A DNA stretch of 64,000 nt, taken from contig CP084166.1 of assembly GCA_021513695.1 (NCBI GenBank), forward strand, positions 1,888,001 to 1,952,000, read 5' to 3'. Below, piece after piece: positions 3,066 to 3,205 of this stretch. Numbering within the stretch: the first letter of the stretch is position 1; every line of letters starts with the position of its first letter. The translations under genes were made by a program, and so were the position numbers. This DNA comes from Candidatus Heimdallarchaeum aukensis. GTDB lineage: Archaea; Asgardarchaeota; Heimdallarchaeia; Heimdallarchaeales; Heimdallarchaeaceae. The notes beneath the pieces are model-generated. The model worked only from the letters and a program-made list of their open reading frames with translations. It made no database searches and was not told the DNA's origin.

Positions 3066-3205
3066 GCCCTGATGGTGTAGCGCGGCCAATCATAATGGAC
3101 TCTCACATGTTGAGGTCCGTGGGCCAAAACAGAAGAATCCATTGACCCGGGTTCAAAAAGATAAATGTTGAGGCATTTATTTTGTAACTCCCGGTCAGGG
3201 CACCA
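3066..3205 (+). tRNA. Intron-containing tRNA (140-nt precursor). It appears to carry two introns, one in the anticodon loop and one in the T-loop (59/60 position). Anticodon possibly CUC (Glu), uncertain.
   Basis: Perfect 7-bp acceptor stem gccctga/tcagggc followed by A and encoded CCA; U8. T-stem ccggg/cccgg with a TTCAAA T-loop interrupted by a ~31-nt insert. An aatgga...tccatt anticodon stem flanks a CTCTCA loop plus a ~31-nt insert. Both inserts share atgttgagg. I could not pair the D-arm cleanly. Confidence 0.5.

Follow-up and report, generated by a model that had tools for sequence, protein, structure and literature searches.

Positions 3066 to 3205 of the 64,000-nucleotide (nt) stretch of Candidatus Heimdallarchaeum aukensis DNA analyzed in this study (contig CP084166.1; the whole stretch is hereafter called the window) carry the parts of a transfer RNA (tRNA) split by two inserts, one in the anticodon loop and the other in the T-loop, which raises the question of whether this locus is a working gene whose product is restored by splicing. 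The structure, orthologues and covariation of the locus make it very probable that it is a functional chromosomal tRNA-Glu(CUC) gene of Heimdallarchaeum, interrupted by two protein-spliced introns of the bulge-helix-bulge (BHB) type (Table 1). A second question, that of where the two introns came from, is raised by a 9-nt word that both of them contain.

In its precursor form the gene escapes tRNA finders. It was recognized neither by ARAGORN with default settings nor by ARAGORN with anticodon introns allowed, and no tRNA match was obtained in an Rfam scan at gathering thresholds or in a permissive Rfam E-value scan of positions 2900 to 3400; this failure is to be expected because the T-loop carries an insert. 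When that insert was removed in silico, ARAGORN reported a tRNA-Glu(CUC) of 78 bases whose anticodon loop holds a 31-nt intron, and this call, together with the alignment of orthologues, sets the limits of exon 1. The parts of the gene follow one another as GCCCTGA TG GTGT AGCGCGGCCAA TCAT A ATGGA CTCTCA (intron 1) A TCCAT TGAC CCGGG TTCAAA (intron 2) T CCCGG TCAGGGC A CCA, where intron 1 is CATGTTGAGGTCCGTGGGCCAAAACAGAAGA and intron 2 is AAGATAAATGTTGAGGCATTTATTTTGTAAC. The acceptor stem (GCCCTGA/TCAGGGC) forms seven perfect base pairs (bp), with A73 and an encoded CCA behind it. A 31-nt insert lies in each of two arms, the anticodon arm (ATGGA/TCCAT) and the T arm (CCGGG/CCCGG). A scan of the window for an acceptor stem with CCA and T stem found no further T-loop-split tRNA.

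The original prediction for this locus had described a tRNA precursor with introns in the anticodon loop and at T-loop position 59/60, a reading borne out by the ARAGORN call after insert removal, by BHB-type motifs, and by the orthologues and compensatory stem changes reported below. The coordinates that it gave, the perfect acceptor stem with CCA and the interruption of both arms by inserts of ~31 nt are all exact, and the anticodon, which it had left unnamed, is CUC, specifying Glu. Two of the checks proposed with it also turned out in its favor: ARAGORN gives a valid tRNA-Glu(CUC) once the T-loop insert is removed, although it does not call the precursor itself, and folding reveals BHB motifs at both inserts, near-canonical for intron 2 and relaxed for intron 1. 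It had further reported that the D-arm could not be folded cleanly and that the gene was perhaps unusual. The mismatch is real, since the D-arm is GUGU/UCAU with U13.U22; however, this D-arm is normal for tRNA-Glu(CUC), because a 13:22 mismatch is present in eight of nine aligned sequences, the window gene among them.

Splicing motifs were located with a script that places the cut after the second base of each 3-nt bulge and evaluates three helices: a central one of 4 bp (H), an outer one (h) and an inner one (h'). Its validation used the tRNA-Arg(UCU) gene of the window, for which it returned a strict motif at the 37/38 site (H 4/4, h 7, h' 4). For intron 2, the corresponding values are 3/4, 5 and 10, precisely at 59/60. 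The 5-bp T stem serves as outer helix, 9-10 bp form the inner hairpin, and the central helix is made up of U54-A, U55.U, C56-G and A57-U (3152-3155 with 3183-3186), with bulges of 3 nt each at 3156-3158 (A58 A59/A, the slash marking the cut) and 3187-3189 (A C/U60). The hBHBh' geometry is present around the 59/60 splice sites with a single mismatch, which makes it near-canonical and short of perfect. A mini-substrate comprising the T arm and intron 2 folds at -17.8 kcal/mol (z = -4.6), and removal of the insert at 59/60 restores the 7-nt T-loop TTCAAA/T. Intron 1 lies one nucleotide 3' of the anticodon, and its removal restores a 7-nt anticodon loop (product CUCUCAA). Here the central helix consists of C32.A, U33-A, C34-G and U35-A (3100-3103 with 3131-3134), the 3' bulge occupies 3135-3137 (G A/A38), the 5' bulge has 5 nt at 3104-3108 (C36 A37/C A U), and a GGUC/GGCC hairpin lies beyond the inner helix, in which 3109-3111 pair with 3128-3130.

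Several observations weigh against the interpretation of the locus as a functional gene with two spliced introns. The U55.U mismatch in the central helix of intron 2 (TGTA as opposed to the usual TGAA) is unique among the 67 distinct 59/60 inserts gathered from metagenomes (see below). The strict hBHBh' motif, with two 3-nt bulges and a 4-bp helix, is absent from intron 1, which has C32.A and a 5-nt rather than a 3-nt 5' bulge, and the minimum-energy fold of this intron takes another register. Its boundary is also ambiguous: the 36/37 and 37/38 registers lead to an identical product, and a 38/39 register would give C38, as in the intron-less orthologues, yet breaks the outer helix. In addition, neither EndA nor RtcB is among the 46 open reading frames (ORFs) examined in the 64-kb window. 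With regard to the relaxed geometry, the C32.A arrangement of intron 1 recurs in the anticodon-loop introns of two relatives (L012 and L004), and intron 1 therefore has a conserved relaxed motif.

Within the window, the gene has TruA as its upstream neighbor and a UDG-family glycosylase as its downstream neighbor. A TruA scan of the genome collection led to Candidatus Heimdallarchaeum endolithica PR6 (CP084167.1; 96% identity), where the tRNA gene is identical at 140 of 140 positions and the upstream spacer at 332 of 351. In a third lineage, represented by a Joint Genome Institute (JGI) metagenome contig (L043), 139 of the 140 gene positions are identical and the flanks are 89-96% identical; the single difference within the gene, G9 to A, affects an unpaired exon base. 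All 62 intron bases are unchanged in both PR6 and L043. More distant relatives were found via TruA homologues at 45-55% identity, which led to contigs of other Heimdallarchaeaceae. In these, a tRNA-Glu(CUC) gene lies just upstream of TruA; downstream of TruA the tRNA is absent, and TruA abuts RFC there. The relatives' gene is intron-less in L003, L005, L006, L010, L011 and L014-16, and it has one anticodon-loop intron in L004 (33 nt) and in L012/L013 (31 nt). The T-loop is uninterrupted in all of these relatives, and its sequence (TTCAAAT) equals the predicted ligation product of the window gene. Only the three Heimdallarchaeum sequences were found to carry intron 2; among the more distant orthologues sampled, the T-loop was always intact. 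Intron 1, by comparison, has the same length and site as the L012 intron and agrees with it at 21 of 31 positions without gaps, an agreement equaled in none of 100,000 shuffles; CAGAA is kept in the BHB register, and the inner pair U5-A24 is replaced by C5-G24 in L012. This alignment indicates that intron 1 is homologous to the L012 intron and hence old, being shared with relatives whose TruA is only ~48% identical.

Covariation was assessed in an alignment of the doubly spliced window sequence with eight orthologous or related tRNA-Glu(CUC) sequences. In the cloverleaf of this alignment, 95.8% of cells were paired and nine pairs had changed on both sides, a result that none of 500 shuffles matched, whereas only 32-55% of cells were paired in slid controls. 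Compensatory changes that span one insert or both are seen in window pairs 5:70 (U-A versus C-G), 30:46 (A-U) and 31:45 (U-A), and the 4-nt variable region and GUGU/UCAU D-arm are common to the window gene and its orthologues. This covariation argues strongly for a working tRNA and against a relic.

The surroundings of the gene have been reorganized. In other Heimdallarchaeaceae (L003-L016), the gene order is Cdc6, a helix-turn-helix (HTH) gene, tRNA-Glu(CUC) (usually on the opposite strand), TruA and RFC, whereas in Heimdallarchaeum (window 1877-6316) the tRNA gene stands downstream of TruA on the same strand, with UDG and amidohydrolase genes then inserted before RFC. This difference in gene order implies that the tRNA-Glu(CUC) gene was relocated in the lineage carrying the T-loop intron. 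Homology between the window and PR6 ends ~40 nt downstream of the tRNA-Glu gene (window ~3245; PR6 contig L002 ~7385), and the UDG and amidohydrolase genes are missing at this place in PR6 and kept in L043; the comparison suggests a rearrangement or the insertion of an element beside tRNA-Glu in one lineage.

The gene structure, motifs, conservation, covariation and homology of intron 1 were computed in this analysis, and the enzymes and chemistry of the following scheme are drawn from the literature. Transcription from the TATA-like element TTTAAAAA would yield a precursor of at least 140 nt, and termination would take place at the T-run behind CCA. EndA would cut in the bulges that flank the short central helix at each intron, leaving a 2',3'-cyclic phosphate and a 5'-OH; judging from an Asgard-wide report (PMC5829648), the EndA of this host would be of the (alpha-beta)2 form with an L1 loop. 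An RtcB-type ligase would join the exons of 40, 21 and 17 nt into a 78-nt tRNA already bearing CCA, and the introns would be released. An element of the TTTAA(A)/CTTAAA type is found 30-57 nt upstream of six of the seven tRNA genes in the window; by eye, there is none for tRNA-Met.

Table 1. Coordinates of the tRNA-Glu(CUC) gene, its parts and associated elements in the window.
Feature	Position	Strand	Description
TATA-like element TTTAAAAA, putative promoter	3011..3018	+	~50 nt upstream of the gene; inferred
tRNA-Glu(CUC) precursor gene, complete	3066..3205	+	140 nt, CCA encoded
Exon 1 (40 nt)	3066..3105	+	tRNA positions 1-37: acceptor 5' strand, D-arm, anticodon stem 5' strand, loop C32-A37
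Anticodon CTC	3102-3104	+	within exon 1
Intron 1 (31 nt, anticodon loop, site 37/38)	3106..3136	+	relaxed BHB
ATGTTGAGG, copy 1	3107..3115	+	intron 1, nt 2-10
Exon 2 (21 nt)	3137..3157	+	tRNA positions 38-59: A38, anticodon stem 3' strand, 4-nt variable region TGAC, T stem 5' strand, TTCAAA
Intron 2 (31 nt, T-loop, site 59/60)	3158..3188	+	near-canonical hBHBh'
ATGTTGAGG, copy 2	3165..3173	+	intron 2, nt 8-16: top of inner stem and hairpin loop
Exon 3 (17 nt)	3189..3205	+	tRNA positions 60-76: U60, T stem 3' strand, acceptor 3' strand, A73, CCA
T-rich run TTTCTTTT, putative archaeal terminator	3207..3214	+	right after CCA; inferred

A metagenome scan with the pattern GACCCGGGTTCAAA-N15-45-TCCCGGT returned 94 stretches, and after removal of tandem-gene artifacts these comprised 83 tRNA genes with a 59/60 insert, representing 67 distinct inserts. 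The modal length of the inserts is 29-31 nt. A perfect central helix H was present in 51 of the 67 distinct inserts, and 42 of the 67 use TGAA for H. ARAGORN assigned the genes mostly to Asp(GTC), Glu(TTC/CTC) and Gly; roughly half of those that it could call (26 of 51) also have a second intron, and at least nine tRNA-Glu genes show the same 37/38 plus 59/60 layout. The window gene resembles these metagenomic tRNA-Asp/Glu/Gly genes with a GACCCGGGTTCAAA...TCCCGGT T-arm in insertion site, T-arm, modal insert length, the hairpin with 3' TGAA-NN architecture, and the frequent second intron in the anticodon loop. It differs from them in the TGTA (U55.U) of intron 2, for which sequence homology was detectable only to the conspecific L043. 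On more than 20 sediment metagenome contigs (L021, L027, L031-L034, L041, L042, L051, L052, L056, L059, L061, L070, L082, L090, L107 and others), tRNA-Asp(GTC) genes contain a 59/60 intron of 30 nt that is highly conserved (TCCGCGTGTGAAAACCATACGCGATGAAAC, with close variants); these introns make up a widespread, apparently old family of T-loop introns.

Multi-intron tRNA genes with non-canonical BHB introns have reportedly been described in Thermoproteales and other TACK archaea, by Sugahara et al. in 2007 and 2008 and by Fujishima et al. in 2010. The multi-intron tRNAs of Thermoproteales/TACK (reviewed in PMC4033280 and PMC4090602) are like the window gene in having short protein-spliced introns at 37/38 and at non-canonical sites, with BHB motifs formed from the exon-intron junctions and with occasional relaxed motifs; their hosts have (alpha-beta)2 EndA with the L1 (crenarchaeal-specific) loop. 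In contrast, the window host is an AT-rich Asgard archaeon (31% GC), and the resemblance of entire introns from gene to gene that defines the transposed families of Thermoproteales was not seen here. For Asgard archaea, EndA of the (alpha-beta)2 form with an L1 loop and broad substrate specificity has been reported, along with tRNA predictions covering four genomes, including Heimdallarchaeota AB_125; the incomplete predicted tRNA sets of Asgard archaea were taken to hide undetected disrupted genes (PMC5829648). In Atabeyarchaeia and Freyarchaeia, 92-95% of tRNA genes contain introns, with many multi-intron genes; two-intron tRNA-Glu(CTC/TTC) genes are listed, and some introns were missed by tRNAscan (PMC11291895). 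These lineages belong to the same superphylum as the window host and also have two-intron tRNA-Glu, whereas introns are present in only three of the seven tRNA genes in the window. Neither this gene nor Heimdallarchaeum is described in PMC11291895 or PMC5829648, and the Heimdallarchaeum genome paper does not discuss tRNA introns (PMC8813620). A 59/60 intron is additionally known from pre-tRNA-Cys(GCA) of ARMAN-2 (Candidatus Micrarchaeum), which served as a mini-helix substrate of the hBH type (PMC3239211, PMC5829648). As in intron 2, the insertion lies between 59 and 60 and the T stem is the outer helix. However, the ARMAN-2 motif is hBH, has no inner helix and is cut by epsilon2 EndA, whereas intron 2 has an inner helix of 9-10 bp and bulges that are both 3 nt, and its host would be expected to have the (alpha-beta)2 enzyme.

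These comparisons alter how the gene is to be valued. The original prediction held that non-canonical introns are known mainly from Thermoproteales/Crenarchaeota, which is too narrow, as such introns have also been reported from Asgard archaea (PMC5829648, PMC11291895), and sediment metagenomes commonly contain 59/60 inserts. It also regarded a double-intron tRNA as notable here. The gene is real; it is less notable than supposed for those same two reasons. A multi-intron archaeal tRNA with a canonical and a 59/60 intron is an already known kind of gene, and Asgard hosts are known to have a fitting enzyme.

The origin of the two introns is a separate matter, in which the word ATGTTGAGG is central. 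That both inserts contain this 9-mer, as originally predicted, was confirmed at 3107 and 3165, its only occurrences when both strands of the 64 kb were searched. The probability that two 31-mers have a 9-mer in common is ~0.0013 by shuffling and 0.007 with random pairs of 31-mers from the window, in what is a post hoc test. Among 23 distinct double-intron genes (the window gene being counted via L043), this is the longest word common to both introns, the other 22 sharing 3-8 nt. Moreover, both introns are 31 nt long, and intron 2 and the exact 9-mer in intron 1 are both confined to Heimdallarchaeum sequences, the homologous L012 intron having ATGCAGAAG in place of ATGTTGAGG. One explanation is that the introns are related by duplication within the gene or by transposition, as proposed for Thermoproteales, either because intron 2 derives from intron 1 or because both stem from one mobile intron; the 9-mer and the equal length would then be the trace of this. 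Such a common origin concerns where the introns came from and is compatible with a functional gene spliced at both sites; we consider it unlikely. The introns show no relationship beyond the 9-mer (P = 0.79 for global alignment; ~9/31 identical without gaps, by eye), and the motif offsets differ (nt 2-10 versus 8-16). Excised archaeal introns are circles, and alignment with circular permutation brought no gain over linear alignment. One control gene shares 8 nt, so 9 is no large outlier, and one-mismatch copies of ATGTTGAGG number 17 in the window against 12.8 expected. A likeness of intron 1 to the tRNA-Met 3' exon (ATCTTGAGGTCGGGGG) was rejected as one of these 17 matches.

No insert related to intron 2 was found among the 67 distinct 59/60 inserts (best score 20 versus a null 95th percentile of 21) or among the relatives' anticodon introns, and matches of viral contigs to both intron probes were at chance level, with no extension past the probe. 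Transposed tRNA intron families are said to have been described by Fujishima et al. in 2010 as highly similar over most of the intron across sites and genes; in the window gene, only the 9-mer is shared. The original prediction saw in the shared motif a hint of duplication or mobility. The 9-mer on which it relied is real, but nothing else supports the idea, given the global alignment, the lack of any other copy in the window, relatives or viral contigs, and the age of intron 1, whose L012 homologue is without the exact motif. Chance is the default reading of the shared 9-mer. There is perhaps a slim chance that the T-loop intron arose in the Heimdallarchaeum lineage itself, as a partial copy of the gene's older anticodon-loop intron. 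Asgard archaea are the archaeal lineage nearest to eukaryotes, and if this were true, a BHB-intron duplication or transposition would have been caught in the act in that lineage, and a dated orthologue series (zero, one and two introns) would bracket the event.

It is also conceivable, though quite improbable, that the 9-mer is a functional RNA element, with UGAGG pairing with the anticodon loop and thereby masking the anticodon or ordering the splicing steps, or with the motif acting as a protein-binding site. Read from the sequence, UGAGG (3111-3115 and 3169-3173) is complementary to U33-A37 (UCUCA), a complementarity that may hint at anticodon masking, and the UGAGG of intron 2 lies in the hairpin loop. 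The L004 intron has UGAG at nt 6-9, at the same offset past the 5' splice site, and its minimum-energy fold pairs this with CUCA; full conservation of the introns in three genomes would likewise fit a functional role. However, the homologous L012 intron has AGAAG instead, other tRNA-Glu(CUC) genes lack the motif in their 59/60 introns, and the window contains no reverse complement of ATGTTGAGG. Box C/D small RNAs (sRNAs), which are known in euryarchaeal tRNA-Trp introns, have a C box (RUGAUGA) and a D box (CUGA) that form a kink-turn (K-turn). An intron-encoded box C/D sRNA was rejected here: the nearest match, AUGUUGA, is not a C box, as U replaces the A that is essential for the sheared G.A pair, neither 31-nt intron contains CUGA, and the Rfam E-value scan gave a chance-level small nucleolar RNA (snoRNA) match (16.5 bits versus a gathering score of 39, E = 1).

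That the gene is instead dead or decaying, its T-loop insert left unremoved while tRNA-Glu(CUC) comes from another gene or its codons are covered by tRNA-Glu(UUC), is most improbable: the failure of ARAGORN and the Rfam tRNA model to recognize the locus and the mismatch in each splicing motif would agree with decay, but exons and introns alike are conserved in three genomes whose flanks differ by 4-10%, the stems carry lineage-specific compensatory changes, the insert sits where a BHB cut regenerates the orthologous 7-nt T-loop, the CCA, TATA-like element and T-run are all retained, and the same architecture is common in other archaea. A split or permuted tRNA gene is ruled out, as the three exons are contiguous and collinear inside 140 nt. 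A single 69-nt "intron" reaching from position 37 into insert 2 (BHB script 3/6/5) was rejected because it would delete exon 2 and has weak A-U/G-U pairs, and an att-site/integrase duplication was rejected because it would repeat the 3' part of the tRNA downstream rather than put a BHB-flanked insert in the T-loop.

Elsewhere in the window, tRNA-Met(CAT) (23036-23151, + strand) contains a canonical intron of 39 nt that begins with the same six bases, ATCTTG, as the 3' exon; its BHB reaches only 3/4, 5, 2 in strict geometry, and the gene is missed by default ARAGORN and found by Rfam and ARAGORN -i. The gene at 50620-50715 (+ strand), given by default ARAGORN as 'tRNA-??? (tcta)', is actually tRNA-Arg(UCU) with a 19-nt intron and strict hBHBh' (4/7/4). 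Between an archaeal small-subunit (SSU) rRNA gene (41054-42531) and this tRNA-Arg(TCT) gene lie ~8 kb of mostly unannotatable ORFs (42591-50117), along with a 1171-aa leucine-rich-repeat protein (45346-48861) and a LAGLIDADG endonuclease (49497-50117; Pfam). The region matches the published mobile element HeimM2, which is inserted exactly between the only 16S gene and tRNA-Arg(TCT) (PMC8813620). Since the Rfam scan gave no large-subunit (LSU) rRNA match anywhere in the window, 16S and 23S are unlinked here. Eukaryote-like signature proteins typical of Asgard archaea are represented by a Ras-family small GTPase (9460-10023, - strand) and an E3 UFM1-ligase-like ORF (63377-63907, - strand), and three ORFs of 972, 803 and 346 aa (12422-15340, - strand; 50716-53127, - strand; 16219-17259, + strand) have no Pfam match at E <= 1e-5.

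The gene reveals no new mechanism, and its value lies mainly in annotation and in its tidy orthologue series. Because neither ARAGORN nor the Rfam tRNA model detects the gene, tRNA-Glu(CUC) may be listed as missing when Heimdallarchaeum genomes are annotated automatically. The orthologues, which run from genes with no intron, through those with the old anticodon-loop intron, to those with a Heimdallarchaeum-specific T-loop intron in addition, provide a small, clean case for studying the timing and manner of gain and loss of archaeal tRNA introns in the lineage nearest to eukaryotes.

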